64,000 bases of DNA from Deltaproteobacteria bacterium (lineage in GTDB: Bacteria; Desulfobacterota; GWC2-55-46; DRQE01): NCBI GenBank assembly GCA_029858205.1, contig JAOUFM010000003.1, positions 210,936-274,935 on the forward strand, in the 5' to 3' direction. The notes beneath the pieces were generated by a model. That model saw only the letters and a list, made by a program, of their open reading frames with translations, did no database searches and had not been told where the DNA came from. Shown piece by piece: positions 4,461 to 38,217 of the stretch; position 1 is the stretch's first letter, and each line of letters starts with the position of its first letter. A program made the translations under genes and the position numbers.

Positions 4461-4469
4461 CCGGTGGCG

Positions 4470-6249: not shown

Positions 6250-6264
6250 ACCACCCTTTTGTTT

Positions 6265-7065: not shown

Positions 7066-7080
7066 CTATACAATTCTCCT

Positions 7081-7800
7081 TTACTTTATAGCAAGGAACC
7101 CCTCGAAACAAACATATTTAAAAACCGTAATTACATCCACAAATCCGGCGCGCTTTAGCAAGTCGGCATTTCCCTGCGACGAAAACGGCTCCAGAACACC
7201 CTTTAAACTGCGCGCCTTGGACACTATTTCTTCGGCCGTATATCCCTGTCTGAGTTTATATTCATTATACAATCCGGTCATGATATCCTGAAACCGAGCA
7301 TCATTGGCTCTGACCTTTTCAAACAGAATAAAGGCCCCTCCCCAATTGAGGTTTTCATATATGCGGTTAAATATGTCCTGCCTTACGCGCGGCTTTACAA
7401 ACTGCAGTGTGTAGTAGGCCGTAAAGACATCGGCCTTCTCATAGTTATACTGGAATATATCGGCGGCCTCGAACTCGACATTTACAGCACTTGATTGTTT
7501 CTTCTTTTCCAGAGCCATCTTTATCATATCCGGCTCGATATCTATGCCTACGAACCTGGCCTCGGGCTTTGTGCTGTTATGCCGAGCGAGCTTCAGCGTC
7601 AACTCACCTGTCGATGTCCCGAGTTCATAGCATAAAGAATTTTTCCCGACAAAAAAATCGCTCAAATTACAGATCAACTCGTGCCCTTCGTTATAAAAGG
7701 GAACCGACCGCGAAACATGCTCATCGAAATTCTTGGCCACATCTCCTTTGAAGTTCCAGTTCGCATTGGCAGCCGTAAGACCGTCTCCGACACCGGACAT
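7081..7800 (-). CDS. CmoA-family SAM-dependent methyltransferase (carboxy-SAM synthase-like)
   Basis: From ATG 7800 (MSGVGDG..., GGAGAG RBS upstream) the sequence aligns by eye along its length with E. coli CmoA as I recall it. Examples are FDEHVSRSVPFYNEG, YTLQFVKPRVRQDIFNRIYENLNWGGAFILFEKV and the C-terminal FEGFLAIK. The track ORF extends 87 codons further to 8061, but that extension is Arg/Cys-rich and overlaps the next gene. Confidence 0.7.
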   Translation of the reverse strand: MSGVGDGLTAANANWNFKGDVAKNFDEHVSRSVPFYNEGHELICNLSDFFVGKNSLCYELGTSTGELTLKLARHNSTKPEARFVGIDIEPDMIKMALEKKKQSSAVNVEFEAADIFQYNYEKADVFTAYYTLQFVKPRVRQDIFNRIYENLNWGGAFILFEKVRANDARFQDIMTGLYNEYKLRQGYTAEEIVSKARSLKGVLEPFSSQGNADLLKRAGFVDVITVFKYVCFEGFLAIK

Positions 7801-7906
7801 ATTATCTCTCCTCTCTGTCTTCTTTGATATTACACGCTCGCGCAACGGACCACAACAGCGCATTGTCTGCCGCCCTCGCGGTACAAAAACCCTTGCAACA
7901 TGTTTT

Positions 7907-8689
7907 TCACTTAAAGAAATCCGAGCCCAGAATATTATATTTGCCGAGCCTTTCCTCCTGCAATTCAAAGGTTGTAATATCGCCCTTTTTGTCCCAGATA
8001 ATTTCGTACTTTCTGGTAAAATTTCTCTCGAGAAACCGCGCGTTGTTCGTTCTGCCGTCAATTATTATAAAAGTGCCTGGCAGAAAAGTCGGCTCCATCA
8101 ACAGCAAGTCCGCAGACATGACAGTACGCTCATCGCACTGAAAACTCAATCCGTTTACCTGCCCCTGCACGTCCTTGGGCGTCGGTCCGTCTAGATAAAT
8201 AAAATCAGGCACTACATCGGGCAAATTTTTATAATAATGGCAAATTTGCCCGATGTGCGTTCCTATCACAACATCGCTTTGCTGCACATGAACCCTGTCG
8301 CGCAGGTCCTCCGGAATTTTGCCTTTCGTTTGCTCTATCCAATGCATGGACGCGTCGACCGAAAAGATTTTGAACATAAAACGATTTCGTACCTCGGGTT
8401 TGTCCGGCAAGGCATTCCATTCTATTTCGTTCTTCCTTAATGCATCGGCCATAACCATTGTCGAATATCCTATCCCGAACTCCAGCACAGTGAAACACTT
8501 GCGGCTCCTGACAAGTTTATGTAACCGGACCAGGTCCGCAACCTGTAGCGGGAAAGGAAGTATCCTCTTGCCGCTTACGGAATCATAGACATCTCTTTGC
8601 GCGTCGCCGCCCGCCTGGAAATCAATTAATCTATCCAGACCGTTTGCAACGATATATTCATTATCATCCATGTTTTTTCCCAAACTCAT
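7907..8689 (-). CDS. hypothetical protein, possible class I methyltransferase-fold enzyme
   Basis: CFTVLEFGIGYSTMVMA resembles SAM motif I, followed by IYLDGP and FIIIDGRTNNARFL. ATG at 8689 has a GAGAGG RBS. The call is tentative. Confidence 0.35.
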   Translation of the reverse strand: MSLGKNMDDNEYIVANGLDRLIDFQAGGDAQRDVYDSVSGKRILPFPLQVADLVRLHKLVRSRKCFTVLEFGIGYSTMVMADALRKNEIEWNALPDKPEVRNRFMFKIFSVDASMHWIEQTKGKIPEDLRDRVHVQQSDVVIGTHIGQICHYYKNLPDVVPDFIYLDGPTPKDVQGQVNGLSFQCDERTVMSADLLLMEPTFLPGTFIIIDGRTNNARFLERNFTRKYEIIWDKKGDITTFELQEERLGKYNILGSDFFK

Positions 8690-8744
8690 TATTTGCCTCT
8701 CGATTGCCGTATTTATCTAAGCCAACGGCGCACATCGGCTTGTA

Positions 8745-9893
8745 TCACAAATATGCCAATCTTTTTTGGATATAAAGCACCACCTGTGATAATGCCGCAG
8801 CAATTTTCCCGCTGGCAGTACCGTCACCATACAGACTGCTGGGGGTAAATCCGCCCTTACCAAGCTGCTTTTTCACGGCCTCGAATATCAATGTGCGTTC
8901 AGGAGCAACAGGTAACACATTCTCCGCCACTTCGCGCCCGCCCTGCCTGTCCCCCACCAGCACGACCGGAGTTCCAAGAAAGGACGAATCCCGCACAAAA
9001 CTGCTGCTATTACCGATGGCGCACGAAGCATTTGCAAGCACCTTAAGGTAATTTTCCGGAGTAAAATTTTTTATCAAACGAAGCCACTTTGCCTCGCGTT
9101 GCTCACGAAAAGCGCGAATAACCTTGCTCACATGATCGGAGCCGGCATCAATATTAGGCCACAACCATACCGTCGGCATCTTAATCTCGCCCAATGCCGT
9201 AATAAGTTGCAACGTTTCGTCCTTTTCCATCCCATACTCGGTGGTAACCGGATGGAAAACCACCAGCAGATATTTATCCGTAGCTGCTATTTCCCCGCCA
9301 ACACCGCGCGCAAAGATATCGAACGGCAGCTCTTTATTAAGCTTTAATGCTATATCGCCGCTTGGACATCCGACAAAAAACACGGTTTCTGGCCTTTCAC
9401 CCATACTTTTCAAATGCTCGGCAGCCTTGCGCGTGGACGGGAAATGAAAATGCGCGAGTTTCGTAATGGCATGCCTTGCGCTCTCGTCTATAGATCCGCT
9501 GACCTCTCCCCCCTGTATATGCGCAATGCAAATATTCATATATGACGCGGCCAGAGCGGCGGCTAACGCTTCATACCTGTCGCCGATAATGAGAACAATA
9601 TCCGGACGAAGCCTCTGGAATTCGCTCGCGAATTCTATTACGGCAAAACCGAGCGACTTGGCCATCGTCAACGGCGTAGACCCTTCCAGTTCTATATATA
9701 TTTCACTGCTTACATCAAAACCATCGGTTCTGACAATATTTACGGGAGCTCCAAACCGCTCCAAGACCATCGTTCCGGCACATACAACTTGCAGGGCCAG
9801 ATCATCGTTACGTTTCACGGCCTCCATGACAGGCTTGAGCCTTCCATAATTGGCCCTATCAACCAAGATAACGGCAATTTTACGTTTATTCAT
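8745..9893 (-). CDS. neuC: UDP-N-acetylglucosamine 2-epimerase (hydrolysing), NeuC type
   Basis: KIAVILVDRANYGRLKPV, DRYEALAAALAA and HIQGGEVSGSIDESARHAITKLAHFHF are typical of NeuC/hydrolysing epimerases. Confidence 0.85.
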   Translation of the reverse strand: MNKRKIAVILVDRANYGRLKPVMEAVKRNDDLALQVVCAGTMVLERFGAPVNIVRTDGFDVSSEIYIELEGSTPLTMAKSLGFAVIEFASEFQRLRPDIVLIIGDRYEALAAALAASYMNICIAHIQGGEVSGSIDESARHAITKLAHFHFPSTRKAAEHLKSMGERPETVFFVGCPSGDIALKLNKELPFDIFARGVGGEIAATDKYLLVVFHPVTTEYGMEKDETLQLITALGEIKMPTVWLWPNIDAGSDHVSKVIRAFREQREAKWLRLIKNFTPENYLKVLANASCAIGNSSSFVRDSSFLGTPVVLVGDRQGGREVAENVLPVAPERTLIFEAVKKQLGKGGFTPSSLYGDGTASGKIAAALSQVVLYIQKRLAYL

Positions 9894-9920
9894 ATAATAT
9901 CCGGCTCCACCTCGCTACAC

Positions 9921-10970
9921 TCATTTCAAGTCTTTAAGACTTATGAATTCGTCGGCACAAACGCAACGCTTAAGTTTTTTTCCATAAAGCTTTTTCAGCA
10001 TGCTTGCCGGTATGCCTATATTCGGCTTTTTAAGAATAAGATCTCCTTCTTCGAGAATTTTCCCTGCCGGAAGATCTGTTCTCGGCACGACACTTCTGCG
10101 AAATATTTCCCGTATCGTCTCAAGTTCTTTTGCCACAGAGTTTTTTTTAACTGGATTTAGCGCGGCTATTTCCAAAAATCTTACTCCCTTTGCCAATTGC
10201 GCCAACTCTTCCATGGTTACGGACGCTATCACGTCGGGGCCAAACATATGCCGCGACATCGTGACATGCACCTCGACAAACCTGGCGCCAAGCGCACAGG
10301 CGGCAAGCCCTGGGTAAATCGTCCCGGAATGGTCCGACAATCCGACCGGGCAACCAAACTGCCGGCTATACCCGGCAAGAACGTTAAGCCCGATTTTTTC
10401 CGGCGGAGTCGGGTACATCGTCGTCGCCTGGAATAAGGAAAAAACAGTTTTTTCCCTTTTTAAAAACGCGACAACTTTTTTTATTTCCCTGTCGGTGCTC
10501 ATGCCGGTAGAGATCAAAACCGGTTTTCGCGTGGCAACTATCCGTTCCAACATTGCCTCATTACCCAATTCTCCGGACCCTATTTTCCACGCGGCAATAC
10601 CTGCCTTTTGCAACAGATTTACGGCCTCTAACGAAAACGGCGAACTGAGAAAATGCAGTCCCTTGCTGCGCGCATACTTTGCCAAACCGCACCATTGCTC
10701 CGGCGTAAACTCCATCCTCTTCCAATAATCATATCTATTTCTGTCCTGCCTGCTAAACTTAACCCTAAACGGTTCATCCAACGTGCTTTCCGCATCGGCG
10801 ATATGGGTTTGGAACTTAATGGCATCCACGCCGGCCTCTGCCACGACATCTACGAATGCATACGCCTGACCGAGGCTCCCGTCGTGCGTTTGCGCGACCT
10901 CGGCAATCAAAAAACACGCCTTGCAGCCTCTTTCGAAATACTTCCCGATATTTTGCATTTTCCGCACCAC
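9921..10970 (-). CDS. neuB: N-acetylneuraminate synthase family (NeuB) with C-terminal SAF domain
   Basis: CFLIAEVAQTHDGSLGQAYAFVDVVAEAGVDAIKFQTH is the NeuB signature, followed by GLSDHSG. The track start is GTG 10970, adjacent to the wzt stop. ATG 10958 is an alternative start. Confidence 0.9.
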   Translation of the reverse strand: MVRKMQNIGKYFERGCKACFLIAEVAQTHDGSLGQAYAFVDVVAEAGVDAIKFQTHIADAESTLDEPFRVKFSRQDRNRYDYWKRMEFTPEQWCGLAKYARSKGLHFLSSPFSLEAVNLLQKAGIAAWKIGSGELGNEAMLERIVATRKPVLISTGMSTDREIKKVVAFLKREKTVFSLFQATTMYPTPPEKIGLNVLAGYSRQFGCPVGLSDHSGTIYPGLAACALGARFVEVHVTMSRHMFGPDVIASVTMEELAQLAKGVRFLEIAALNPVKKNSVAKELETIREIFRRSVVPRTDLPAGKILEEGDLILKKPNIGIPASMLKKLYGKKLKRCVCADEFISLKDLK

Positions 10971-12257
10971 CTATACCACCTTTTGAGGCTGAGTCCAGAC
11001 ATAGGGCAATTTTACGGCACCAAGGCTATGGTATGACCAATTAACATTGGAATACCCCTTTGACGATGGCTCTATAGCGAAATCTAGCGCCGGCCTTATG
11101 CCGTCCTGCAAAGACGGCGCGTACATACTGAGCCAGGTAAAATATCTGCCGGGGCGCAAATAGTTCGGGGATATATCGAGCCCAAACTTGTACATTCCAG
11201 GCGCCATGACAGCCTCCATCACATCTGACAGAACCGCAAACACCTTTGCGTCCATCGAATCAAGTACCCCGAAATGTATTTCCAAAAGATCCAACTGTTG
11301 CCTCACTTCAACATAGATATCTATATGTATCGATTCTTCCTCTTCATACTGTGACCGCGCTTTGCCAATCTTATCCGAGCAAATGGCTTTTACAAAAACC
11401 GCCTTGGCGGTTTTGGGATTTACTTTATGCAAAGGTCTTTCCAAAAGCCTTAAATCATATACGCCATCCTCCCTCGCAGACAGGCCGCAGCCGGAAGGAT
11501 CTTTAACATAATGTTCTATCACTTCATGCGTTACCCCGGACATAGTCACAACGCCTTTAGTAAGCTCTATGCATCTCGTCGTGAGAGATGCTACCGCGCT
11601 CATGTTATGGCTTACAAAAAGGACGGTCCGCCCCCCCTCTGCCACCTCACCCATCTTACCAAGACATTTCTTCTGAAATCCGGCATCACCGACGGCAAGA
11701 ACTTCATCAACTACCAGTATCTCCGGCTCAAGATGCGCAGCAACTGCAAAGGCCAAACGCACATACATGCCGCTCGAATACCGTTTAACAGGCGTATCGA
11801 GAAACTTCTCTATCTCCGAGAACGCCACTATCTCGTCAAACTTGCTTTTTATCTCAGCCCTCGTCATTCCAAGAAGAGCGCCGTTTAAAAGTATATTTTC
11901 CCTTCCGGTAAGTTCCGGATGAAAACCCGTGCCGACCTCGAGAAGGCTCGCAACGCGCCCCTTCATCGTAATACGGCCGGACGTGGGCTCAGTTATCCTC
12001 GAAAGTATTTTCAAGAGCGTACTTTTACCTGCGCCGTTACGGCCTATAATACCTACAACCTCTCCTTCCTTTACGTTGAAGGAAACGTCCTTCAACGCCC
12101 AAACGATATTATCTTCTTCCTTTTTAGGAGCGCCAAAATTCTTGAACGGCGCAGTCAACGTCTGTACTATTTCATCGCGAAGGCTACCGTAAGCCATCCT
12201 TTCGCCGATCCTGTATTGTTTAGATATATTTCTTACTTCTATTATATTCTTAGACAT
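10971..12257 (-). CDS. wzt: polysaccharide ABC exporter ATP-binding protein (Wzt/TagH type) with about 180-aa C-terminal extension
   Basis: Walker A is GRNGAGKSTLLKIL, the ABC signature is YSSGMYVRLAF, and Walker B is ILVVDEVLAVGD. Residues from about 250 to 428 lie beyond the ATPase core. Confidence 0.9.
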   Translation of the reverse strand: MSKNIIEVRNISKQYRIGERMAYGSLRDEIVQTLTAPFKNFGAPKKEEDNIVWALKDVSFNVKEGEVVGIIGRNGAGKSTLLKILSRITEPTSGRITMKGRVASLLEVGTGFHPELTGRENILLNGALLGMTRAEIKSKFDEIVAFSEIEKFLDTPVKRYSSGMYVRLAFAVAAHLEPEILVVDEVLAVGDAGFQKKCLGKMGEVAEGGRTVLFVSHNMSAVASLTTRCIELTKGVVTMSGVTHEVIEHYVKDPSGCGLSAREDGVYDLRLLERPLHKVNPKTAKAVFVKAICSDKIGKARSQYEEEESIHIDIYVEVRQQLDLLEIHFGVLDSMDAKVFAVLSDVMEAVMAPGMYKFGLDISPNYLRPGRYFTWLSMYAPSLQDGIRPALDFAIEPSSKGYSNVNWSYHSLGAVKLPYVWTQPQKVV

Positions 12258-12264
12258 ACTCGTA

Positions 12265-13089
12265 TCAGACCACGTCCGAGAAATAACGCTCTACGCGGCG
12301 GAAATAAAAAACACCGCTTACAAAAACCGCAAAACCGCATACGGCAGACACAGCCAGAGATGCCCAAGGAATATCCACATGACCCAGAACAGCAGCCCGG
12401 ATTGCCTCTATGACACCGGACATCGGGTTTAGCATCAATATCATCTTATACTTTTCCGATAAAAGACCTGCCGGATAAATAACCGGGGTCACGAACATCC
12501 ATATCTGCACGAAAAACGGTATTGCATACTGAATATCCCTGTACCTTACGTTTAGCGCCGAAAACCAAAGCCCGAACCCAACAGCATTCATCATGACGAA
12601 AGACATCAATATCGGCACAAGAAAAATTCCCAAACCAGGCTTTACGCCGTAATAAACCATTATCGCGCCAAACACGAGCGCCGAGATAAAGAAATCCAGA
12701 AACACGGACACGGCGGAACTCGCAGGCATGATGATTCGCGGAAAATATATTTTTGTTATAAGATTTTTTTCAGAAACGACACTGCTGGTAGATTGCGTAA
12801 GCACTGCAGCAAAGTACTGCCACGGTAAAAGACCGGCATACACGAAAACCGGGTACGGTACGCCCTCCGATGGCATCCCCGCGAACCTGCCGAAAATTAC
12901 CGAAAAAACGACCATGGTCAGCACCGGCTGCAGCACGGCCCACACTATGCCGATAACAGCCTGCTTATACTTTACCTTTACATCCCTCCACGCAAGAAAA
13001 TACAAAAGCTCCCTGTACTTCCATATCTCGCGAAGGTCGACCGGTATAAACCCTTTTCTGGGTTCTATGACAGTAACATTATCAGCCAT
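12265..13089 (-). CDS. wzm: polysaccharide ABC-2 type exporter permease (Wzm type)
   Basis: 274 aa and multi-pass hydrophobic. The N-terminal LREIWKYRELLYFLAWRDVKVKYKQAVIGIVWAVLQP is typical of ABC-2 Wzm/TagG. It lies adjacent to wzt. Confidence 0.85.
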   Translation of the reverse strand: MADNVTVIEPRKGFIPVDLREIWKYRELLYFLAWRDVKVKYKQAVIGIVWAVLQPVLTMVVFSVIFGRFAGMPSEGVPYPVFVYAGLLPWQYFAAVLTQSTSSVVSEKNLITKIYFPRIIMPASSAVSVFLDFFISALVFGAIMVYYGVKPGLGIFLVPILMSFVMMNAVGFGLWFSALNVRYRDIQYAIPFFVQIWMFVTPVIYPAGLLSEKYKMILMLNPMSGVIEAIRAAVLGHVDIPWASLAVSAVCGFAVFVSGVFYFRRVERYFSDVV

Positions 13090-13092
13090 AAA

Positions 13093-14034
<942 letters not shown>

Positions 14035-15171
14035 TTAACCTACCGTCAATTTACTATCTGTCCAGGCTATGCCTTTTTTGGCGAGTATCTTTCTGCCTTC
14101 ACCCTTTGAATCGACACCTGCGGCCTCAAGGTCATAATCCACCATTATCTTGACCAGATCCTTGAATGTTATCTCAGGGGTCCACCCGAGTTCCTTTTTG
14201 GCCTTTCTTATGTCAGCCTTAAGCACATCGACCTCTGTAGGCCTTAAATAACGGGGATCGAGCTCTATGATTGCGTATCCCGGCTTTAGACCGTCGGCAA
14301 TGCCTTTTTTAAGAGACTTTATTACTCCCTTTTCCTTAATGCCCTTGCCCTTCCATTCGATCTCTATTCCCGCATATTCGAATGCATGGTTCAAAAAGTC
14401 CCTTACCGACCTTGTATCGCCCGTGCCTATTACAAAATCCCCGGGCTTATCGTGCTGAAGGATGCGCCACTGGCATTCGACGTATTCGGGCGCAAACCCC
14501 CAGTCCCTTTTTGCGTCGAGGTTGCCAAGGTAAAGCTTTTTTTGCTTACCCGCGACTATCGCGGCAAGGGCGCGCGTGATTTTGCGCGTAACAAAAGTCT
14601 CGCCCCTTCTTGGAGATTCGTGGTTAAAAAGTATCCCGTTCGAGGCGAACATGCGGTAGCCTTCGCGGTAGTTTACGGTCATCCAGTACGAGTACACCTT
14701 TGCCGCGGCGTAAGGGCTCTGCGGCCGAAATACCGTTTTCTCGCTTTGCGGAGGAAGCGCGCTCCCAAACATTTCACTCGAAGACGCCTGATAAAAACGC
14801 GCAGGCACTCCGCTTCTCCTGACTGCCTCGAGAAGGCGTGTTGTGCCAAGTCCGGTGATGTCGCCTGTGTATTCGGGTATATCGAAACTCACGCGAACGT
14901 GGCTCTGGGCGCCGAGATGATAAATCTCGTTTGGCGCAATATTGTAAACCAGATTAACGAGCTGTCCCGAGTCCGAAAGGTCTCCGTAGTGAAGTAAAAG
15001 TTTTGTCCCCGGCAGGTGACGGTCCTTATATATATGATCTATCCTGTGGGTATTGAAGGTACTGGCGCGCCGTATTATGCCGTGCACCTCGTAGCCCTTG
15101 CTTAAGAGAAGTTCGGCAAGGTAGCTTCCGTCCTGCCCTGTTATTCCCGTTATAAGCGCGCGCTTTCCCAT
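14035..15171 (-). CDS. gmd: GDP-mannose 4,6-dehydratase
   Basis: [46 protein letters not shown] and [21 protein letters not shown] are highly characteristic of Gmd. Confidence 0.95.
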
Positions 15172-15172
15172 T

Positions 15173-15874
15173 CTATTCTCCCGGATTGTTTTTTATTATA
15201 GTAGGCCTCTCGGCCCAGCGTTTCTTATCGACAAAAACGGTGTTAACGAACGTATCGCCGCAGACGATATATCCATTACGCTCCATCACCTTGAATATTT
15301 CATCGTTCTTCCTGTTCTCGTTATAATAAACGGTCTCTATGCAAAACACCTCGGGTCTGTACTTCTTGAAATCGAAACTCTCGAGTATCTCGACCTCGAG
15401 GCCTTCGACGTCAATGGTTACAAGGTTCGGGCATTTATCGAAATATTTTTCGATTATCCCGTTTATGGGCACGACATTTATCTTCAACACCTTCGGCTCG
15501 CCGCTGCCAATACTCTTGTAACGCTCCATGGTTTCCCTGCTGCAGGTGCTAAGTGTTGTGCCGCCCGGTATAACGTAAAAATCAATGACCCCTGCCTTTG
15601 CCGCAACGCCGACATTAAGATTAACGTCCCTTCTTCTCTTAAAACCGAACTTGGCGAAAAGCTCCGGGTCTGGCTCCACGTTCACGCCCTTGCATCCGTT
15701 CTTGTAAAAATAGTACGTGTTACTGAACTTAACGGGGTCGTGCGCGCCGACATCAAGATAAGTGGGTTTACGTATCTTTAACGCCCTCAAGATGAAATCC
15801 GCAAGCACGTCCTCGCCTGCCTGGGCGTAAGATCTCTTATAATCTCTTTTGAATATATTCCTTATGAATTTCAT
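15173..15874 (-). CDS. FkbM-family methyltransferase
   Basis: Carries the motifs [19 protein letters not shown] and [14 protein letters not shown]. Confidence 0.75.
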
Positions 15875-15891
15875 CTCATTGAACTCCGGCC

Positions 15892-17217
15892 CTACGCCGG
15901 CACCACCTTTTTGCTTTTAAATTTCCTTGCCGCGCCTCTTGCATCCACCACTATCTTGCTGTTAACAGCTATCATCTTATAGTCGTAACACGTATGGTCC
16001 GTGGATATGACGACGCAATCGTATTTCTTTAACGCCGCGGGGGTAAGTTTCACGGACTTAAGTTCGATTGCATGGTGCCGCATCCTCGGCATCTTCGGCA
16101 CATAGGGGTCGTTATAATCCACCTTTGCGCCAAGCCCCTTTAGCATTTCTATGATATGCACGGAAGGAGACTCCCTCATGTCATCCACATCTTTTTTATA
16201 CGCCGCTCCGAGCACAAGGATACGCGAGCCTTTGACGGACTTGCCTTCCTTGTTTAGCGCTGTACCGACCTTCCCAATGACATAAGAAGGCATGGAGGTG
16301 TTTATCTCCCCGGCAAGCTCTATAAAGCGCGTTGCGAACTCGTACTCCTTCGCCTTCCACGTAAGGTAAAACGGGTCTATGGGAATGCAATGCCCGCCAA
16401 GGCCCGGGCCCGGATAAAAGGCCTGGAACCCGAAGGGCTTGGTCTTCGAGGCATCGATGACCTCCCATATGTCAATGCCCATCTTATCGGTAAGCATCTT
16501 AAGCTCGTTTACAAGCGCTATATTGACGCAGCGATATATATTCTCGAGAAGCTTTGTCATCTCTGCCGCGCGCGTGGTAGAGACCTCTACCACCTTATCT
16601 ATAATCTGCGAGTACAACAGACTGCCCGCTGCCAGACAATCCTTTGTAACACCGCCAACCACCTTGGGAATCGTCTTTGTCGAAAAATCCTTTCTCCCCG
16701 GATCTTCCCTTTCGGGCGAGAATACAAGGAAGTAATCTTTGCCGACACGAAGCCCTGTTTTTTCGAATTCCGTAAGAAGTATTTCGTCGGTTGTTCCGGG
16801 ATAAGTAGTGGACTCAAGAGAAACAAGCTGGCCTATTCTAAGGCGCTCCACTATCTCCTTTGTCGTACCGACAACATAGCTCATATCCGGCTCGCGCATC
16901 TTACCCAGCGGCGTAGGCACGCATATGATGACCGCATCCGGCTCCTTAAGCCTGTTCATGTCAGCGGTCGCGGCAAACTTCTTTCCCTTGACATGTTTTG
17001 CGATATCCCCTGCGGCTATGTGCTTTATGTAAGACCTTCCGGCATTGAGCGCCTTTACTTTGGACGAGTCAACATCGAACCCGAGCACCCTGAAGCCTTC
17101 GTCGCAGAACCTGAGTACCAGCGGCAACCCGACATAACCAAGCCCGATAACGCCTATGAGCGCGCTTCGTTTTTCTATTTTTTCAAGCAGTTTTTCTTTT
17201 ACGATATTTTTCGCCAT
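15892..17217 (-). CDS. nucleotide-sugar dehydrogenase (UDP-GlcNAc/UDP-ManNAc 6-dehydrogenase-like, WbpA/WecC/TviB group)
   Basis: N-terminal Rossmann [13 protein letters not shown], a catalytic region with [13 protein letters not shown], and a length of 441 aa. Confidence 0.85.
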
Positions 17218-17253
17218 AGCACCTCATTTAAAGCCGTTTCTCAGGATTTTTTC

Positions 17254-17868
17254 TCAAACCTGTCCTTTTTTGCTGATGTCTATGATCCGTGCCTGAACAA
17301 CCCCTGCCTCTATCAATGCCTTCGAAAGTTCCGCGCTTCTATAAAACGAAGTTATTACTATGGCCTCGGCTGCGCCGTCCCTGAGCTTTTCAATACCGAC
17401 AACCGGCATATCGAAAAACTTTTCGGTTCTTTCGATATCCGAAATGCAGACAAGCTCCAACCCGGCCTCCTTTAAAGACAGATACGCTATCTCGGCAACC
17501 TCATCTACGCCGCAGAAAGCGACTCTGCTTATGCCAAGCTCCTTCAACCTTGCAAACAGTTCAGCGAAATCCGTCCTCGCAACCCTGTAGAGGTTGGTAA
17601 AATTCCTCAGATGTTCGTAGGTGAGACGGGTCTTTTCAAGAAAACCATTTGGCGTAAGATAATATTTGTAGCGCTTTGCGGGAATACCGGAGACTGTTAT
17701 GTAACCTTTTGAAATGAGATTCTTTATGTAGGAATTTATGAGTCCCAGCGCAATACCGAGGTTTTTGCTTATTTCACGCTGGGTTAGGTCGCCGTTTCGC
17801 GATATCTCGTCAAGCACGAGAAGCGAACGGTACCCATCCATATGGCCGTTTTTATCCTCGCTGTTCAT
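17254..17868 (-). CDS. winged-helix (MarR-like) transcriptional regulator with C-terminal Rossmann-like domain; first gene of the glycan cluster
   Basis: LVLDEISRNGDLTQREISKNLGIALGLINSYIKNLISKGYITV is a wHTH segment. The start is uncertain: the track ORF begins at 17919, and I prefer ATG 17868 (MNSEDK). Confidence 0.55.
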   Translation of the reverse strand: MNSEDKNGHMDGYRSLLVLDEISRNGDLTQREISKNLGIALGLINSYIKNLISKGYITVSGIPAKRYKYYLTPNGFLEKTRLTYEHLRNFTNLYRVARTDFAELFARLKELGISRVAFCGVDEVAEIAYLSLKEAGLELVCISDIERTEKFFDMPVVGIEKLRDGAAEAIVITSFYRSAELSKALIEAGVVQARIIDISKKGQV

Positions 17869-18050
17869 ACTATGAACATACCATTTAATCAGGCATTTTG
17901 TCAAGTAAAACGCGTTCATGCAATGAACTGGCCGCGCGCAAAAAATTAGTAATTTACATTTGCCGGGGTTTTATTGTATGGTATATTACTTAAAATTCCC
18001 CGTGCTGTTTTATTAAAAAATATTCCAACTTCGCTATCTGAAAAGTAAAT

Positions 18051-18080
18051 TTGGCCATGCCAGTCTTTTTATGCTACAAT
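18051..18080 (+). promoter_or_regulatory. putative sigma-70 promoter for the five-gene cassette
   Basis: TTGGCC (18051-18056), an 18-nt spacer, then TACAAT (18075-18080), 22 nt upstream of ATG 18103. It lies inside a 183-nt AT-rich divergent intergenic region. Confidence 0.3.
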
Positions 18081-18102: not shown

Positions 18103-20238
18103 ATGAATGCCAGAGATTTTGAAAAAGAGATAAAAATCCACATCGAAGCGCGCTACCCCATTTTGTGGCTCGTATCGTTCGAAGAGCGCCGGGTCGAGCG
18201 CATCGTCGAAAACCTCTGCAATACCAACGGGTTCAAGTTCTGGACATGGTCCGTGTCAAAAGGGCTCTACGGTAGCGACAAAAAAAAGAAAGAGCCCGTT
18301 GGCAGGGAAAAAATCCTTACCTCCATTGAGGAAAAGATAGTAAAGAACGAGGAAATCAATAACTTCTTCCTTTTAAAGGACATTGCCGGGTATTTCCAAT
18401 CCCACGAGTTCCTAAGAAAGTTTCGCGACATCCCGGGCACCATCGAGGACTATCGCTCGCTTAACACCGTCTGCATCCTCTCGCCAACACTTAGCGAGAT
18501 TCCGCCGGAGCTCGAAGAAGACATCGTGGTAATCGAGCTTAGCCTGCCCGAGTACGACGAAATCGAGGAGATGGTAAACACGAACTTTTCCAAATACATC
18601 CCCGCGTCGTGGCATTCGTCTACGAGGTCGGTTCTCTACAAATCGCTACAGGGCCTTTCTCTAGATAACATCAAAAGGGTCGTAAGAAAGGCAATCAGCC
18701 TGAATAGAGGCGTGCTGAACGAAGAATGCATCAAGTACATACAGGACGAGAAGCAGCAAATCATAAAAAAGCAGCAGATACTCGATTACTACCCCTACAG
18801 GGAAACTATCGACCACATCGGCGGCCTCGATGAAATAAAAAAATGGTTCGTCGAGAGAGAGCATGTCTTCCGTTTAAGCAAGGGCAAAATCGAAACTCTC
18901 GGCCTTGACGTTCCAAAAGGCCTCATGCTAATTGGCGTTCCGGGCTCCGGGAAAAGCCTCTGCTGCAAGGCCCTTGCCGGCATCTGGAACCTTCCGCTTC
19001 TAAGAATGGACGTAGGCCGTCTCTTTGGCTCGACAGTCGGAGAGTCCGAGAAAAATATTCGTAAGGCCATACAGCTTGCAGAGGCGGTAAGCCCCTGCAT
19101 AATGTGGATCGACGAGATAGACAAGGCATTCGGCGGAATATCCGGTTTCCAGGGGGATTCGGGCACGCAGCTAAGGGTGTTTGGCACCTTCATCACATGG
19201 CTGCAGGAAAAGGACAAACCCGTCTTTGTCATAGCAACTGCCAACGACCCGAAAAACCTTCCTCCCGAGCTATGGAGAAAAGGCCGCTACGACGAAGTGT
19301 TCTTCGTCGATCTTCCAAGCGCCGAGGAAAGAGACGAAATATTCAAGATACACCTCGAAAGAAGAGGACAAAAACCGTCGAACTTCCGCTTAAAGGAACT
19401 CTCGCAGAACTCGCAGGGCTACACGGGCGCCGAGATAGAGCAGGCCATAAAGGACGCGGTCGTTGCCACATTCAACACTCTGCACGAGGGAAAAGAAGCA
19501 AAAGAGGCCGACGCAATAATAGACGGCACCTTAACCCTCTCACTCGACACGGCAACGCTTCTCGAAGCGATACGGCACATAACGCCGCTCTCGGTTCTGA
19601 AAAAAGAGGAGATCGAGGCGCTTCGCGAATGGAGCCAGCAAAGGGCGCGGCCCGCATCGAAGTCTCTCTTCATGCAGCGCGCAGAGATGCTCTCTGACGC
19701 GGAAAAGCGCACTATCGCCATACACGAGGCCGGACATATAATAATGATGTGGCATCACTTCAATGGCACGCCGGTCTTCGTGAGCATAGATAACTACAAG
19801 GACACCTCTGCATTCACCGGCAAGAGCGAAAGCCTCGTAAACACACTTACCAAGCGCGACCTGGAAAAGGAAATCGGCGTGATGCTTGGCGGCATGGTGG
19901 CCGAAGACGAGGTCGGCGGAGCGGACTCGAAAACTGTTGGCGCCTCGCACGACCTTAGCGACGCAACGGCCAAGGCAAGAAGAATGGTCGTGGAATACGG
20001 CTTTGGCGACATAATGAAGAACACGAGCCTTGTAGAGCTCCAGGAATACGCCATGATGTCCGGGAAAGACATTCTCGAGGACATACAGAAGATAATCCAC
20101 GGCGCAAAGGAAGAGACCGAGTCCGTCATTTCGAAGAACAAAGCGCTTCTCGAAAAGCTCGCGGACAAGCTCGTGGCGGAGATACTCGTAAACGGCGAGG
20201 GATTAAGGAATTTCCTTACGCAGCACAATCTGGAATAA
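18103..20238 (+). CDS. soluble AAA+ ATPase (Ycf46-like N-terminus) fused to C-terminal FtsH-type M41 zinc-metalloprotease domain
   Basis: Walker A GVPGSGKS (aa 278-285), Walker B CIMWIDEID, second region of homology ATANDPKNLPPELWRKGRYDEVFFVDLP, and Zn motif HEAGH (aa 541-545). FtsH-like LGGMVAEDEVGG and GASHDLSDATAKARRMVVEYGFG follow. The N-terminal 250 aa are hydrophilic (ARYPILWLVSFEERRVERIV) with no TM helix. Confidence 0.8.
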   Translation: MNARDFEKEIKIHIEARYPILWLVSFEERRVERIVENLCNTNGFKFWTWSVSKGLYGSDKKKKEPVGREKILTSIEEKIVKNEEINNFFLLKDIAGYFQSHEFLRKFRDIPGTIEDYRSLNTVCILSPTLSEIPPELEEDIVVIELSLPEYDEIEEMVNTNFSKYIPASWHSSTRSVLYKSLQGLSLDNIKRVVRKAISLNRGVLNEECIKYIQDEKQQIIKKQQILDYYPYRETIDHIGGLDEIKKWFVEREHVFRLSKGKIETLGLDVPKGLMLIGVPGSGKSLCCKALAGIWNLPLLRMDVGRLFGSTVGESEKNIRKAIQLAEAVSPCIMWIDEIDKAFGGISGFQGDSGTQLRVFGTFITWLQEKDKPVFVIATANDPKNLPPELWRKGRYDEVFFVDLPSAEERDEIFKIHLERRGQKPSNFRLKELSQNSQGYTGAEIEQAIKDAVVATFNTLHEGKEAKEADAIIDGTLTLSLDTATLLEAIRHITPLSVLKKEEIEALREWSQQRARPASKSLFMQRAEMLSDAEKRTIAIHEAGHIIMMWHHFNGTPVFVSIDNYKDTSAFTGKSESLVNTLTKRDLEKEIGVMLGGMVAEDEVGGADSKTVGASHDLSDATAKARRMVVEYGFGDIMKNTSLVELQEYAMMSGKDILEDIQKIIHGAKEETESVISKNKALLEKLADKLVAEILVNGEGLRNFLTQHNLE

Positions 20239-20248: not shown

Positions 20249-20587
20249 ATGTCGTTTTTCACAAAGCTCAACACCGAACTCAAAAACAAACAGTACGTGC
20301 TCGCTGCCATAGCCGCCCTTAAGCAGACAGGCGAGATAAAGAACTACGCCATAAACGAAAAGAAGGAAAGCGTCGAAATAAACCGCGCCGGCGACATTAT
20401 ACAGGTAGTAAAAACAAAGACCGGCGAGTACGAACTGCAGGGAGACGCAAGAGTGGTAAGCGCCTTCTCGAGCAGGCTAAAGCAGCTCTACGCGTACGAG
20501 GCAATCAAAGACAACATGCCGCTGGACTTCGAGATAGCCGAAGAGATAGAAACCGCCGGAGAGATCCGCATCGTGCTTAAAGGCTAA
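20249..20587 (+). CDS. DUF1257-like small protein (Ycf35-like)
   Basis: 112 aa. The N-terminus MSFFTKLNTELKNKQYVLAAIAALKQTG resembles the MSHF(S/T)xIKTxl...L..AL..LG opening I associate with DUF1257. It starts 10 nt after the AAA+ stop. Confidence 0.5.
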   Translation: MSFFTKLNTELKNKQYVLAAIAALKQTGEIKNYAINEKKESVEINRAGDIIQVVKTKTGEYELQGDARVVSAFSSRLKQLYAYEAIKDNMPLDFEIAEEIETAGEIRIVLKG

Positions 20588-20589: not shown

Positions 20590-20775
20590 ATGGGTAAAGA
20601 GATAAAAATAAAGATAACACCCGACGGCAAGGTCGAGATAGATTCGACCGTGTTCAAGGACTGTAAAGAGGTGGCCGAACACCTATCGAAGGTCATAGGA
20701 AAGGTCGAGGTCTTCACCATAAAAGAAGAACACGAGCGCGAAGAAAAACTTCGCATAAAAAAAGGCGACAAATAA
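20590..20775 (+). CDS. DUF2997-like small protein
   Basis: 61 aa. IKIKITPDGKVEIDSTVFKDCKEVAEHLSKVIG resembles the I.I..DG.V......G..C......L...LG pattern of DUF2997 as I recall it. It has a Lys/Glu-rich tail and a 2-nt gap from the previous gene. Confidence 0.45.
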   Translation: MGKEIKIKITPDGKVEIDSTVFKDCKEVAEHLSKVIGKVEVFTIKEEHEREEKLRIKKGDK

Positions 20776-20779: not shown

Positions 20780-21364
20780 ATGGCATCGTCGATATTCATA
20801 GACACGCACGCGATAATCGAGAGGTCGCGTGTAAACGGCCCAGGACAGAGGCTGGTGGTCTTTTTCCAGGGCTGTCACAGGAACTGTCCTGGCTGCTTCA
20901 ATCCGGCAACGCACTCAATCGGCACTGGCGTCAAATACGGCATACGGGAGATATTCGCGCGTTTCCTCTCTAAAAACGTAAGCGGCTTAACTGTTAGCGG
21001 AGGTGAGCCGTTTCTGCAAAGCGCGGCGCTCTGTGAACTGCTTAAAACCGCAAAACGCGAACACGGCCTTACGACCGCCGTGTACACGGGATTCACGATA
21101 GAGGAAATACGTTCATCAACGGAGCTTAGCCCTGCGCTCGAGCACATAGACGTGCTCATAGACGGGGCGTTCGACGAAAACAACACAGAAAGGACAACTC
21201 TTGCAAGAGGTTCCACAAACCAGCGCCTTCACTTTCTCTCCGGCGTTTATTCGATAGATGATTTTATTTTGCCAGGCAAAGCGGAGATAATAATCAACAA
21301 GGACGGTTCGGTGGTAGAGACCGGATTTTCGAAGCCGGCGGGAATAAACTCCATCCTCTTGTAA
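20780..21364 (+). CDS. NrdG/PflA-like radical-SAM activating enzyme (4Fe-4S single-cluster domain)
   Basis: SRVNGPGQRLVVFFQGCHRNCPGCFNPATH carries the CX3CX2C cluster motif (C32, C36, C39) in the NrdG-type context, and VSGGEPF is the SAM-binding GGE motif. 194 aa. Confidence 0.75.
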   Translation: MASSIFIDTHAIIERSRVNGPGQRLVVFFQGCHRNCPGCFNPATHSIGTGVKYGIREIFARFLSKNVSGLTVSGGEPFLQSAALCELLKTAKREHGLTTAVYTGFTIEEIRSSTELSPALEHIDVLIDGAFDENNTERTTLARGSTNQRLHFLSGVYSIDDFILPGKAEIIINKDGSVVETGFSKPAGINSILL

Positions 21365-21377: not shown

Positions 21378-24161
21378 ATGACGATAGAGAACTTCTTCAG
21401 GGACAATTCCGGCATAGCGCGCACAAGCGCAGTTGAGCAGCGCGACGCGGCGCTAAAATACCTGCGCTCGCTGCCAGAGTCTAGCGACAGGGCCGAGGAC
21501 TTCAAATCGGCGTACGCGTACATACGAAACATCAGCGACGCCGAAGAAATGCGAAACGCACTCATCGAGCTTGCCATCACGATGCCAAAGCACGGCCCGT
21601 GCATGGACCTGTTTAAAGAAGTGTTCCCCGGCGCCATCAACTCCACAGACGCCATACCCGAGCCCATACACCGCAAATCAACGCTTACGCGCCTTGTAGA
21701 CTGCGTGCCCGACAAACCGGAGTACGCCGAGGCATACGCGCGCGTCGTGGAAAAATACATCGAGGCCGCAGACAAGATAGACGACCGCTTTGCGCGGCGC
21801 TACGCGCTTGCGGAAATTGCATCGAGACTCAAACACAGGGACGAATACGAAGCCCTCATGCTCCATGCCATGAAGGTGAGCCTCGGGTTTGCCGGCCTTC
21901 CGGGCTTTAGGCAATACTCGCTTCCCGAGATAGCAAGGGAACTTCCGAAAAGCTGCGACGTGGAGGTCTACAGAAACCACACATTCCTCGGGCTTGCGTT
22001 CTCGCTGCCGCACAGGGGCGAGTTCCTCGAACTCTTCAAAAAGGCCCTGACCACGGCCATCGAGTCAACGGAGCACATCGTTGAGCCGTATTACAAGAAA
22101 TACGCCCTTCTCTTCATGGCCAACAGGCTGCCCGAGACAGCAGAGTTTTTACCGCTAAGAAAGAGCGCTTTCAGGGCCGCCCTTGCCTCGGTCGACACGC
22201 TCGCCGACAGCTTCGCCAGGCAGTACGGATATAACGAATTCCTAAAGGACGTGCCAAAGACGCGCGAATTCTCCGACATACTGCTCGATACGGTCGAGAA
22301 GAGCCTTCCGTTCTTTTCTCTAAGAAGCCAGATGTCGGACTACGAGCCCATAGAGATACTCGACCGGATACTGATCGTCGCGGACAAAAAAATATCGGAT
22401 TCGAAGAAAAAACATTACACCCGCTTCCATTACGCCGATTTTTTCCTGAAACAGCTGAACCTGATAGCCGATAACTTAAACGATGTGCGCCTTCTGGAAA
22501 TTCTAAGGCCCTACACGCACGTATGGGTAAGGCCAAAAACTTTCAGGGACTCGATACGCAAGGTGTTCGACAAGGTCTCGTCCTTAAAAGGCAGATACCA
22601 CGGCGCCGAAGTAGAGCGTCCACTTTATGTCAGCGAGGCATGCCTCGGCATAGACAAACGAAGCCGCACGGCATCCGTTATGGCGGATACGCGCGAAGGC
22701 TACGCGCTCTCGATAGACCTTGGCGCCACCAATACCGTTGTAATGCTTAAAAAACCCGGGGCATTCCCGGAATTCGTCAACATAGAAGGATTATCCGAAA
22801 CCATCGGAAGCGTTGCCTTCATAAGCACGGCAGTAGACAAGAACAACGACTTGATAGGCGCTGCGGCGCCGGCCCAGTCGCGCTCGAACAACATAAAAAA
22901 ACTGTTCATGGAAGGCGACGAAGAGGGGCGCGAGCTCATCGAGAAGTTTTTCCGCATCCTGTACTCCAGAATAAAGGAATCTGTCGAGGTGCCCGGGTTT
23001 TTCAAGAAACTTTCCGGCAGGATTTTCGATACCGTTTCCGTGACAGTGCCGGTCGGGTATACGGATTACAGCGGCGAACTTACCAGAATCATCGAAAAAT
23101 ACGCGGGCAGCGCGCGCATAAAGCTCGTGGAAGAGCCGCTTGCTGCGGCGATAGGCTATAACGTGGCGGAGAAAAAGGAAAAATTCGTCCTTGTTCTCGA
23201 CTTTGGCGGCTGCACGCTCGACCCGATGCTTTTAAGGCTCTCTACCGACATGACACACGTCATAGCAAAGCCCGACAGATCCAAGATGCTTGGCGGGCGC
23301 GACATAGACCGCTGGGTGGCCGAGTACGTGAACGAAAAGCATAACCTTAGGACCAACCCTTCGGGGCACGAGGCCCTGACTGCGGCAGAGGCGCTGAAAA
23401 TAGAACTTAGCGCCAAAAACTCGGCGAAGTTCGTGTTTGGCGGCCGCGATATCGCGGAACTTACGCGCATAGAGTTCGAGGAGCTTCTCTCGCGCAGAGG
23501 GTTCTACAGCGACATAGACAGGGAACTTTCGAACGTGCTAAAAAAGGCTTCGAAGCTCGGCGTTTATAAATCCATGATAGAGGCCGTCATCATAACCGGG
23601 GGCTCTTCGCAGATACCGTCGTTCAAGGAAAAGATATCTCACTACTTCCACAACCTGGCCGTGCAAAACGCGATATACGACCACAGCCCGCTGTCGTCGG
23701 TCGCAAGGGGCGCGGCCCTCTACGGCACGGCCTCGGTGCTGGACCGCCACCTGGCCATGGCGTACGCAATAAAGCACATTGCAAGGGAAGAGGAAAAACA
23801 GTTTGCCTACGAAATCGTACTCGAAAAGGGCGAATCGCTTCCGTTCAAAAAGACCTTGCGCTTTACTCCTGCCATGACGCTCGGTGGACAGAAGGAAATA
23901 TTTCTCGAACTCTTCGAGGTGCCCGATTCCCTTATCGTACGGCGCTGGATATCCGAGGGCGGCATGGAGTTCATAAAGCAAATACTTAAGCACACGCCCG
24001 ACGAACTCGATCTGAGGGCTTTCAAGACCGTCACGCTTTCATTCGACGCTCCTATAGAAGGAAGCACAGACATCACATTTATAGTGGAAGAGAACGGACG
24101 ATTGAAGGTGCGCTACGAAAAAGACGGCCGCGAACTTGCAACCGACATACACCTTCAGTAA
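21378..24161 (+). CDS. 927-aa protein: N-terminal alpha-helical repeat region (about 440 aa) plus C-terminal Hsp70/DnaK-like actin-fold ATPase with beta-rich tail
   Basis: Hsp70 motifs are SIDLGATNTVV (phosphate-1, from about aa 445), EEPLAAAIGYN, VLVLDFGGCTLD (phosphate-2) and VIITGGSSQIPSF (adenosine). The N-terminus has recurring segments such as FARRYALAEIASRL, YYKKYALLFMANRLPETAEF, FARQYGYNEFLKDVPKTREF and YSLPEIARELPKS. Confidence 0.75.
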   Translation: MTIENFFRDNSGIARTSAVEQRDAALKYLRSLPESSDRAEDFKSAYAYIRNISDAEEMRNALIELAITMPKHGPCMDLFKEVFPGAINSTDAIPEPIHRKSTLTRLVDCVPDKPEYAEAYARVVEKYIEAADKIDDRFARRYALAEIASRLKHRDEYEALMLHAMKVSLGFAGLPGFRQYSLPEIARELPKSCDVEVYRNHTFLGLAFSLPHRGEFLELFKKALTTAIESTEHIVEPYYKKYALLFMANRLPETAEFLPLRKSAFRAALASVDTLADSFARQYGYNEFLKDVPKTREFSDILLDTVEKSLPFFSLRSQMSDYEPIEILDRILIVADKKISDSKKKHYTRFHYADFFLKQLNLIADNLNDVRLLEILRPYTHVWVRPKTFRDSIRKVFDKVSSLKGRYHGAEVERPLYVSEACLGIDKRSRTASVMADTREGYALSIDLGATNTVVMLKKPGAFPEFVNIEGLSETIGSVAFISTAVDKNNDLIGAAAPAQSRSNNIKKLFMEGDEEGRELIEKFFRILYSRIKESVEVPGFFKKLSGRIFDTVSVTVPVGYTDYSGELTRIIEKYAGSARIKLVEEPLAAAIGYNVAEKKEKFVLVLDFGGCTLDPMLLRLSTDMTHVIAKPDRSKMLGGRDIDRWVAEYVNEKHNLRTNPSGHEALTAAEALKIELSAKNSAKFVFGGRDIAELTRIEFEELLSRRGFYSDIDRELSNVLKKASKLGVYKSMIEAVIITGGSSQIPSFKEKISHYFHNLAVQNAIYDHSPLSSVARGAALYGTASVLDRHLAMAYAIKHIAREEEKQFAYEIVLEKGESLPFKKTLRFTPAMTLGGQKEIFLELFEVPDSLIVRRWISEGGMEFIKQILKHTPDELDLRAFKTVTLSFDAPIEGSTDITFIVEENGRLKVRYEKDGRELATDIHLQ

Positions 24162-38174: not shown

Positions 38175-38217
38175 TTTTCAAACTGCTCCAACACAACGAT
38201 TTTTTTAACTTGCCGGT

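Follow-up and report, generated by a model that had tools for sequence, protein, structure and literature searches.

The 64,000-nucleotide window analyzed here, from a contig of a Deltaproteobacteria bacterium, contains a gene for a small radical S-adenosylmethionine (SAM) protein that stands fourth among five co-directional genes (Table 1). As judged from its sequence, this open reading frame (ORF) encodes an intact, catalytically competent radical-SAM enzyme (rSAM) of the glycyl-radical-activase lineage (NrdG/PflA type). The protein is improbable as the activase of a class III ribonucleotide reductase (RNR), and its operon places an activase-type enzyme of glycyl-radical enzymes (GREs) in an undescribed partnership. 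We put at about one in two the probability that this enzyme, of activase descent but not serving RNR, is the enzymatic part of a dedicated five-gene operon, which would be one version of a wider AAA+-coupled module, and that it acts on a macromolecule held by chaperones.

The rSAM ORF presents a CX3CX2C motif at C32, C36, and C39, a GGEP motif, and a GSTNQ motif (GSxNQ across the family). It matches the Pfam families Fer4_12 (6.6e-34) and Radical_SAM (3.6e-07), both above their gathering scores. Translation and Pfam thereby confirm the 194-residue reading, the three cysteines, and the GGEP motif described in an earlier note on this DNA. An alignment of 85 homologues shows no variation at C32, C36, C39, G74-G75, P77, G144-S145, or N147, while at least 90% of the sequences share E76 and Q148, which indicates that the cluster and SAM motifs are under selection. 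The AlphaFold2 model (pLDDT, the predicted local distance difference test, of 84.6) has as its closest solved fold the PFL-activating enzyme (PFL-AE; 3cb8, Foldseek 2.6e-9), the sole activase with a solved structure, followed by QueE and viperin. The protein therefore combines the cluster motif, the SAM-binding GGEP, and the partial-barrel fold of the radical-SAM/GRE-activase type.

Against the NCBIfam equivalog model for NrdG (TIGR02491), the window rSAM scores 117.3 bits, below the cutoff of 126.1. Five other relatives linked to AAA+ ATPases score 114.0, 118.9, 100.3, 86.7, and 80.8 bits, so that all six AAA-linked proteins fall under the cutoff, whereas five NrdD-linked NrdGs (from Negativicutes, Escherichia coli, Clostridioides difficile, Bacillus mycoides, and Paenibacillus polymyxa SC2) score 139.8 to 220.3 bits, all above it. 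Throughout the AAA-linked clade, the C terminus is longer than in canonical NrdG by some 40 residues (...NQxxxxLxxxY....ExxIxxDGxxxxxG[FLMW]). MAFFT aligns this extension with the PflA KVWIRYVVVPGWSD barrel strands and PGW motif, and because it is placed opposite these strands, the extension may represent barrel strands that minimal NrdG has lost rather than a tail. The same alignment weakens the idea that it is a flexible docking tail or a self-substrate. In a neighbor-joining tree, the 16 sampled rSAMs of the five-gene cassette form one clade in 85.5% of 200 bootstraps, and most AAA-linked variants branch beside it, away from the NrdD-linked NrdGs; deeper nodes are weak (21%) for such a short protein. 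Placement firmly inside NrdG with no conservation of the operon, the outcome that the earlier note had set against its own proposal, was found on neither count, given the score below the cutoff, the separate clade, and the conserved operon described below.

Canonical relatives behave differently from the window protein with respect to NrdD. The canonical nrdG directly follows nrdD in three plasmid cases, and NrdG also adjoins NrdD in two genome cases and in E. coli. In the viral database IMG/VR, NrdD detectably adjoins 21 of 29 matches, and 28 of the 29 are of the short NrdG type; the sole match that includes the extension has an AAA gene on its 3' side and no NrdD. No member of the cassette clade was found in IMG/VR. 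A viral origin was accordingly set aside, the phage match with seemingly long coverage (H1) being a 167-residue ORF of the NrdG type.

No GRE was detected nearby. Pfam scans of the five operon proteins, and of another ten large ORFs of the window, gave no match to NRDD, PFL-like, or Gly_radical. A tblastn search with a verified NrdD (Pfam NRDD, 3.8e-177), encoded at a Negativicutes locus (L079), returned nothing credible in the 64 kb or in 77 related loci of 5 to 20 kb; the identical query is the one that detects NrdD beside 21 of the 29 viral NrdG matches. The fingerprint of the glycyl-radical domain, RVxG[FWY]x6-8[FL]x4Qx2[IV]x2R (PMC13450708), gave no match in the window and the 77 loci, and the E. 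coli NrdD and PflB controls do match. Shorter RVxG[FWY] matches lie within shadow ORFs or UDP-glucose dehydrogenase. The absence of a GRE and of a clear RV(S/A)G(Y/F) motif from the 64 kb, as the earlier note had it, is thus upheld by three kinds of search. These do not carry equal weight. The regular expression misses the Firmicute-type NrdD controls L079, L092, L093, and L094, of which L079 is the one scanned and identified as NRDD by Pfam and the other three are annotated as anaerobic ribonucleoside triphosphate reductase. Motif searches alone would therefore miss NrdDs of this type, which makes the homology search the stronger test.

The five genes are separated by gaps of only 10, 2, 4, and 13 nt and encode, in order, a soluble Cdc48/FtsH-like AAA+ protease, a DUF1257-like protein, a DUF2997 protein, the rSAM, and an Hsp70-like ATPase. 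Promoter-like sites are confined to the 183-nt gap before the first gene, where three pattern matches to the consensus were found (TTTACA-N18-TATGGT, TTGCCG-N16-TATATT, and TTGGCC-N18-TACAAT). A scan of one genome per species retrieved 268 relatives, of which the best 80 were examined. In 77 of these loci, tblastn recovered the five genes in the same order essentially wherever the contig reaches, and no NrdD. The 77 loci span Deltaproteobacteria/Thermodesulfobacteriota and Nitrospirota (at least two phyla) as well as unclassified metagenome-assembled genomes. Identities to the window proteins are approximately 72% (AAA+ protease), 56% (112-residue DUF1257-like protein), 62% (DUF2997), 54% (rSAM), and 41% (Hsp70-like protein). 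Clustering of all flanking ORFs revealed no sixth conserved gene, the next clusters being shadow ORFs or lineage synteny. The upstream genes (UDP-glucose dehydrogenase and a MarR-type regulator) are syntenic only in the five closest relatives. Mirror-tree distance correlations track protein length and are uninformative (0.90 for AAA with Hsp70-like; the best for the rSAM is 0.69, also with Hsp70-like). Two Negativicutes loci (L079 and L080) match residues 1 to 150 of the rSAM only and lie directly 3' of NrdD; on both grounds they are true NrdGs and serve as internal controls.

The AAA+ protease matches Pfam AAA (6.3e-30) and Peptidase_M41 (1.8e-19), and its best solved relatives are the D2 domains of Cdc48/VAT (1e-51). 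It is 69 to 76% identical across loci and conserves Walker A and B, the pore loop, HEAGH, and the GAS.DL..AT motifs. Its N-domain has no Pfam match. It is not an FtsH in the strict sense, as it scores 173 against a cutoff of 600 for the FtsH equivalog (TIGR01241), and reading of its N terminus reveals no hydrophobic segment, whereas FtsH has an N-terminal transmembrane anchor. The 112-residue protein scores 15.8 bits (0.016) against DUF1257/Ycf35 (PF06868; gathering score, 22.2), with nearly the whole profile covered. The same profile is matched by 9 of 24 homologues, and the gene occupies the position of annotated or Pfam-matched DUF1257 genes in other versions of the module. Its C terminus reads ...LKG in 63 of 70 homologues, and the other 7 end in D, S, or A. 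A ubiquitin-like reading of this ending was rejected on account of those seven and of a predicted fold that is not a beta-grasp. The 61-residue protein scores 20.1 bits (5.7e-4) against DUF2997 (PF11211; gathering score, 24.1), and all 18 homologues match the profile (best, 4.4e-6). Its alignment with plasmid and metagenome proteins shows one glycine, in a "DG" hairpin, and one cysteine kept in every variant. The Hsp70-like protein matches Pfam HSP70 (4.7e-27) over residues 551 to 783, and its best matches in the PDB are the nucleotide-binding domains of BiP and DnaK, with the phosphate and adenosine motifs intact. Its N-terminal region of about 440 residues is poorly conserved and has no Pfam match (441 residues scanned), and its C-terminal region would, by inference from the sequence, resemble the substrate-binding beta-domain of Hsp70. 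Scores of 97 to 100 bits for HscA (cutoffs, 620 to 709) and 83 for DnaK (cutoff, 648) place it outside both families. Its C-terminal ...LQ is conserved in at least 95% of 60 homologues.

The five-gene operon has wider relatives, which were collected by tblastn against plasmids, from annotated neighborhoods, and from representatives of clusters at 50% identity. Extension-bearing proteins 30 to 46% identical to the window rSAM recur beside AAA+ ATPases, usually in the company of DUF2997 and often of DUF1257. Twelve further such relatives adjoin an AAA+ ATPase. DUF2997 accompanies nine relatives, and one more relative occurs with an HSP70 gene (Table 1). Hosts include plasmids of Paenibacillus, Bacillus, Rhodococcus, Acinetobacter, and others, an Asgard archaeon, and metagenomes, and the accessory partners vary among nucleases, helicases, and membrane proteins. 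The AAA partners are of two unrelated kinds: Cdc48-like proteins with an N-domain of the window type (35 to 41% identity) and Clp/Hsp100-D2-like proteins (18 to 19%). That two unrelated AAA+ types fill the partner slot suggests that unfoldase activity is the function needed. A search of 1.84 billion representatives gave 7,561 matches at an E value of ≤1e-3, among which the five-gene clade is a single representative. Of the 150 best cluster representatives, a majority align as far as residue 180 or farther, which indicates that the extension-bearing group is large and diverse.

Several features of individual loci were observed alongside these. In the Bacillus and actinobacterial versions of the module, at L085 (10090-10830, 10877-12553), L086 (4252-5880, 6545-7381), and L090 (4902-6533), the AAA protein and a membrane-anchored HhH protein share a C-terminal motif. 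The paired tails are GGRTIDF/GRMIDF in Bacillus and GGRTFEF/GRRLEF in Rhodococcus, and the AAA protein of Paenarthrobacter ends in GGRQIDF; by analogy with the HbYX tails of proteasomal ATPases, the shared tail may be a docking peptide. The two Paenibacillus proteins with two transmembrane segments (2-TM) end in ...RVIHF and ...RVIRL. On the Acinetobacter sp. WCHA55 plasmid pNDM1_010055 (L087), a 173-residue AAA ATPase, a second radical-SAM protein of 328 residues, and a hypothetical gene lie directly 3' of the AAA-rSAM pair (8847-10829); upstream are a large AAA-domain protein and a PIN protein whose N terminus weakly resembles Mokosh MkoB. The rSAM genes of the Treponema succinifaciens plasmid pTRESU01 (L084) and of locus L131 lie among injection-system and baseplate genes (VgrG/Pvc8, gpV, GPW_gp25). 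The Treponema AAA protein has an N-domain of the window type, and it may or may not be the loading ATPase of the injection system itself. At two loci (L126, 6044-7219; L127, 2999-4174), a 391-residue protein joins an ArcS core, DUF5591 with its motif of the PC-x3-KPF type, to an NrdG-like rSAM that bears the extension. Its gene immediately follows an FHA-domain gene on a phage-like contig and has a GroES gene close by. This fusion is possibly a single-chain enzyme of the ArcS2-RaSEA type for 7-deazaguanine modification.

The intact motifs suggest that a [4Fe-4S]+ cluster on C32, C36, and C39 would cleave SAM to yield the 5'-deoxyadenosyl radical. This radical would take a hydrogen atom from a macromolecule, itself held, unfolded, or exposed by the ATP-driven partners, and the most probable target is a position in a protein backbone. 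A protein is favored because the nearest characterized families are protein activases, because all operon partners handle proteins, and because activation of a GRE requires a buried loop to flip out (PMC13450708), a need that also makes sense of an unfoldase partner. DUF2997, with its conserved glycine and cysteine, leads the candidates in this operon; alternatively, the AAA+/Hsp70 pair could deliver a client. DUF2997 is the best substrate candidate here but not a universal one: neither DUF2997 nor DUF1257 was found in five versions of the module, so that neither can be the general substrate. The earlier note had left the choice between a distant GRE partner and a non-canonical substrate within the operon. 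The operon, the score, and the clade favor the non-canonical substrate, and "within the operon" is perhaps too narrow, since distant relatives keep only the AAA+ partner and the substrate may therefore be a client of the unfoldase that the operon does not encode. The outcome would likely be a one-off covalent change that gates or accompanies the action of the AAA protease. Less likely is a catalytic glycyl radical that persists, as in GREs. Oxygen destroys glycyl radicals, with cleavage of the backbone, and given the aerobic host genera of the family a persistent radical is unlikely family-wide, whereas a one-off modification fits better.

A number of observations weigh against action on a chaperone-held macromolecule as proposed here. 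No operon protein bears the glycyl-radical motif in the fingerprint scan, and the fold predicted for the DUF1257-like protein is TBP/KA1-like rather than that of a glycyl-radical domain. The N-domains of the partner AAA+ proteins are not conserved between the two AAA classes, and custom hidden Markov models for DUF2997 and DUF1257 drew no match at the Asgard, Treponema, Acinetobacter, Polaromonas, and Aristaeella loci. An extension-bearing copy on a plasmid of the cyanobacterium Kovacikia, beside a transposase fragment, has no AAA gene within 9 kb, and the module occurs in the aerobic genera Rhodococcus, Paenarthrobacter, and Acinetobacter. Also rejected was the motif WSVSxGLY of the AAA N-domain as a glycyl-radical-like site, because the Asgard and other AAA partners do not conserve it. 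The placing of relatives among mobile-element and defense-like genes fits a role in conflict or stress response. This fit is weakest for the chromosomal, highly conserved version: its AAA protein is approximately 72% identical across phyla, its locus lies among housekeeping and extracellular polysaccharide (EPS) genes, and PADLOC gives only generic AAA and viperin-level matches. More tentatively, and at clearly under even odds, we propose for the family as a whole that an activase of the NrdG/PflA type was recruited outside the GRE world. Paired with an AAA+ unfoldase, and in most cases with DUF2997/DUF1257, it would be the core of a hitherto unrecognized and widely distributed family, found in bacteria, on plasmids, and in Asgard archaea and extending to aerobic hosts, that performs radical chemistry on an unfoldase-exposed polypeptide. 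It might install a radical in DUF2997 or modify its backbone; otherwise it might act on a client protein that is foreign or damaged and so trigger, or serve as the effector of, a conflict or stress response.

Among the alternatives, a nucleic acid or nucleotide target, as for RaSEA, QueE, or viperin, with AAA+ and Hsp70 remodeling a ribonucleoprotein or controlling the enzyme, is a serious rival, because a relative 46% identical over residues 11 to 184, extension included, is fused to the ArcS core domain DUF5591 (P0278; 1e-13) on a phage-like contig. ArcS forms a complex with RaSEA, a radical-SAM enzyme, to act on tRNA, and a phage homologue acts on DNA (PMC11298593; PMC10516641). This fusion counts against a protein target, as do the accessory genes of the variant loci, many of them for nucleic-acid binders or nucleases, which include S1, HhH, PIN, NYN, and RNase III genes as well as SF1 helicases; QueE and viperin are, moreover, the fold neighbors next to PflA, and the DUF1257-like fold resembles the RNA-binding KA1/METTL16-VCR and TBP-like domains. 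We nevertheless consider this explanation rather unlikely, since the operon lacks TGT/DpdA, QueC/D/E, DUF5591, and any recognizable nucleic-acid-binding domain, its partners all handle proteins, and the strongest profiles are those of protein activases (NrdG, 117 bits; PflA, 70 bits), with QueE at E values of 1.5e-3 to 3e-3 and viperin at 27 bits.

Very unlikely is a role of the rSAM mainly as an iron-sulfur redox or oxygen sensor, or as a scaffold, that regulates the AAA protease or Hsp70 with little or no radical chemistry. The set of DUF1257, DUF2997, a [4Fe-4S] protein, and Hsp70 found here has a parallel in the cyanobacterial cluster of DUF2997 and DUF1257 (ycf35) with fed7, whose product is a [4Fe-4S] ferredoxin with a DnaJ-like binding partner and a role in oxidative and metal stress (PMC4284462), and one variant of the module has a thioredoxin/AhpC-like neighbor. 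The SAM motifs beyond the cluster ligands, GGEP and GSxNQ, are however invariant or nearly so over the clade, which is hard to explain without SAM chemistry. An ordinary activase of a class III RNR or another GRE, its partner encoded elsewhere in the genome and the operon context incidental, is the least probable of these explanations and scarcely credible. Of the named families, NrdG gives the best score (5.5e-34, only 9 bits short of the cutoff), public annotations name several homologues NrdG, and the five-gene hosts appear to be uncultured Deltaproteobacteria, Thermodesulfobacteriota, and Nitrospirota, many members of which are anaerobes that could own a class III RNR. This explanation has to contend with a gene order kept in 77 of 77 loci, none adjoining NrdD, with the clean score gap from NrdD-linked NrdGs, and with the conserved C-terminal extension. 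The subfamily occurs, furthermore, in Rhodococcus, Paenarthrobacter, Acinetobacter, and Polaromonas, which are aerobes in which class III RNR is not expected. GRE activases, in turn, are described as specific to their GRE and are normally encoded with it (PMC13450708).

The literature searched contains no description of the five-gene operon and mentions DUF2997 and DUF1257 in passing only. Compared with known systems, the window rSAM shares with NrdG (TIGR02491) the CX3CX2C spacing, an N-terminal GPGxR...FxxGC block, GGEP, GSxNQ, and a single radical-SAM domain without a ferredoxin insert, but its clade has the extension and the AAA+/DUF/Hsp70 operon and never adjoins NrdD. It is 26% identical to PflA (3cb8) over 138 columns but lacks the C-terminal PflA helices and a PFL or GrcA partner, and it scores 70 against a cutoff of 232 for the PFLA equivalog. 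The cyanobacterial DUF2997-DUF1257 (ycf35)-fed7 cluster likewise combines two small proteins with a small [4Fe-4S] protein and a link to Hsp70/DnaJ (PMC4284462), but there the Fe-S protein is a ferredoxin instead of an rSAM and no AAA protease or Hsp70 gene is present. In ArcS-RaSEA and the phage ArcS2, a small radical-SAM protein works in an obligate partner complex, and the window rSAM is linked to them through its relative fused to DUF5591; the window operon has no DUF5591, TGT, or preQ0 genes, and Pfam scans that covered the five operon proteins and ten more large ORFs, though not the window exhaustively, gave no match to DUF5591 or TGT.

Among published concepts, the FtsH "ternary" conflict system of Kaur et al. 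(2020), enriched in Deltaproteobacteria, comes closest; in it a radical-SAM protein is proposed to modify a co-encoded peptide (PMC7159879). That system and the window operon both pair an FtsH-type AAA+ protein with a distinctive radical-SAM protein in a multi-gene system (PMC7159879). The ternary systems are, however, defined by a vWA protein, a MoxR ATPase, and an FtsH-like protein with two AAA domains and have no DUF1257, DUF2997, or Hsp70, whereas the five operon proteins show neither a vWA nor a MoxR domain by Pfam, and the protease shows a single AAA domain. Prokaryotic viperins (pVip) are radical-SAM proteins in a defense context, are fold neighbors of the window rSAM, and give a weak local match to their PADLOC profile (1.3e-7), but the window rSAM is much shorter, lacks the nucleotide-binding C-terminal domain, and scores 27.3 against a cutoff of 180 for viperin_w_prok. 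PADLOC-DB v2 yielded no matching system, only generic matches to IetA (AAA core), pVip (rSAM core), and PDC-M61B (5.5e-5, Hsp70-like). At variant loci, the Clp-like AAA proteins resemble the Dodola DolB/PDC-M37B models, and the PIN protein weakly resembles MkoB.

GRE activases have been described as one-to-one partners of GREs and as an anaerobic specialty; the sister group described here is instead tied to protein-unfolding ATPases. If this group performs radical chemistry, that chemistry is not yet described, and if the proposal is true, it would be without precedent both for a GRE-activase-like enzyme to act on a protein other than a GRE and for a radical-SAM enzyme to be partnered with an unfoldase. 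The widespread orphan families DUF2997 and DUF1257/Ycf35 now have an enzymatic partner attached to them, the cyanobacterial ferredoxin cluster being the only published context found. The label [quoted passage not shown] borne by many members is probably a misnomer, one that could lead metabolic reconstructions of uncultured anaerobes astray. The question is directly testable in the cultured hosts whose plasmids bear the module (P. polymyxa M1, Bacillus cereus, Rhodococcus aetherivorans, and Acinetobacter).

Table 1. Features of the five-gene operon in the window, followed by the gene content of related loci
Feature or locus	Positions	Strand	Description
Promoter-like sites	17953..18080	+	183-nt gap 5' of first operon gene, common to the divergent MarR-type regulator gene
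AAA+ protease	18103..20238	+	711 aa, soluble; ~230-aa conserved N-domain, one Cdc48/VAT-D2-like AAA domain, FtsH-type M41 peptidase with HEAGH
DUF1257-like protein	20249..20587	+	112 aa; TBP-like/KA1-like alpha+beta predicted fold; C terminus usually ...LKG
DUF2997 protein	20590..20775	+	61 aa; directly 5' of rSAM gene
Radical-SAM enzyme (rSAM)	20780..21364	+	194 aa, ATG start; NrdG/PflA-type core plus ~40 C-terminal residues
Hsp70-like protein	21378..24161	+	927 aa; ~440-aa N-region, actin/Hsp70-type nucleotide-binding domain, short C-terminal region
Paenibacillus polymyxa M1 pPPM1a			AAA, DUF1257, DUF2997, rSAM, two 2-TM proteins
Rhodococcus, Paenarthrobacter, one metagenome contig			AAA, 141-149-aa protein, DUF2997, TM-HhH protein, rSAM
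Bacillus cereus			rSAM, 151-aa protein, TM-HhH, AAA, DUF2997
Metagenome contig L128			helicase, TPR, PNKP-like, 1095-aa protein, rSAM, S1-domain protein, AAA, DUF1257, DUF2997
Metagenome contig L134			HSP70, DUF1257, DUF2997, rSAM
Metagenome contigs L132, L133			DUF1257 and/or DUF2997 directly 5' of rSAM
Treponema succinifaciens plasmid			rSAM, AAA, among contractile-injection-system genes
Asgard archaeon			RNase III, 189-aa protein, rSAM, AAA, 1028-aa protein, SF1 helicase-NYN
Acinetobacter, Polaromonas plasmids			large AAA-domain protein, PIN protein, 371-aa protein, AAA, rSAM
Aristaeella			DUF4011, kinase, hypothetical protein, FHA, rSAM, AAA, phosphatase

Upstream of the operon, positions 570 to 17919 on the reverse strand read as a long sugar-nucleotide/polysaccharide cluster, with genes resembling GDP-mannose dehydratase, an epimerase, UDP-glucose dehydrogenase, and a methyltransferase. 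The cluster ends in a MarR-type EPS-associated regulator (TIGR04176-like, 61.7 bits, below the cutoff) that is divergent from the operon promoter, and its junction with the operon is syntenic in the five closest relatives only. The ORF at 2754-4460 (568 aa) has no Pfam match. Farther downstream, three tandem paralogous ORFs of 573, 563, and 588 aa (36453-42043, reverse strand) each match TPR over a short C-terminal stretch only, their N-terminal regions of about 450 aa being otherwise without assignment. An NFACT/RqcH-like protein (NFACT_N, 3e-64; NFACT-R_1) is encoded on the forward strand at 42921-44354, and a convergent gene that slightly overlaps it (44333-46264, reverse strand) encodes an Lnb-like periplasmic protein with DUF7843 and DUF7840 domains.

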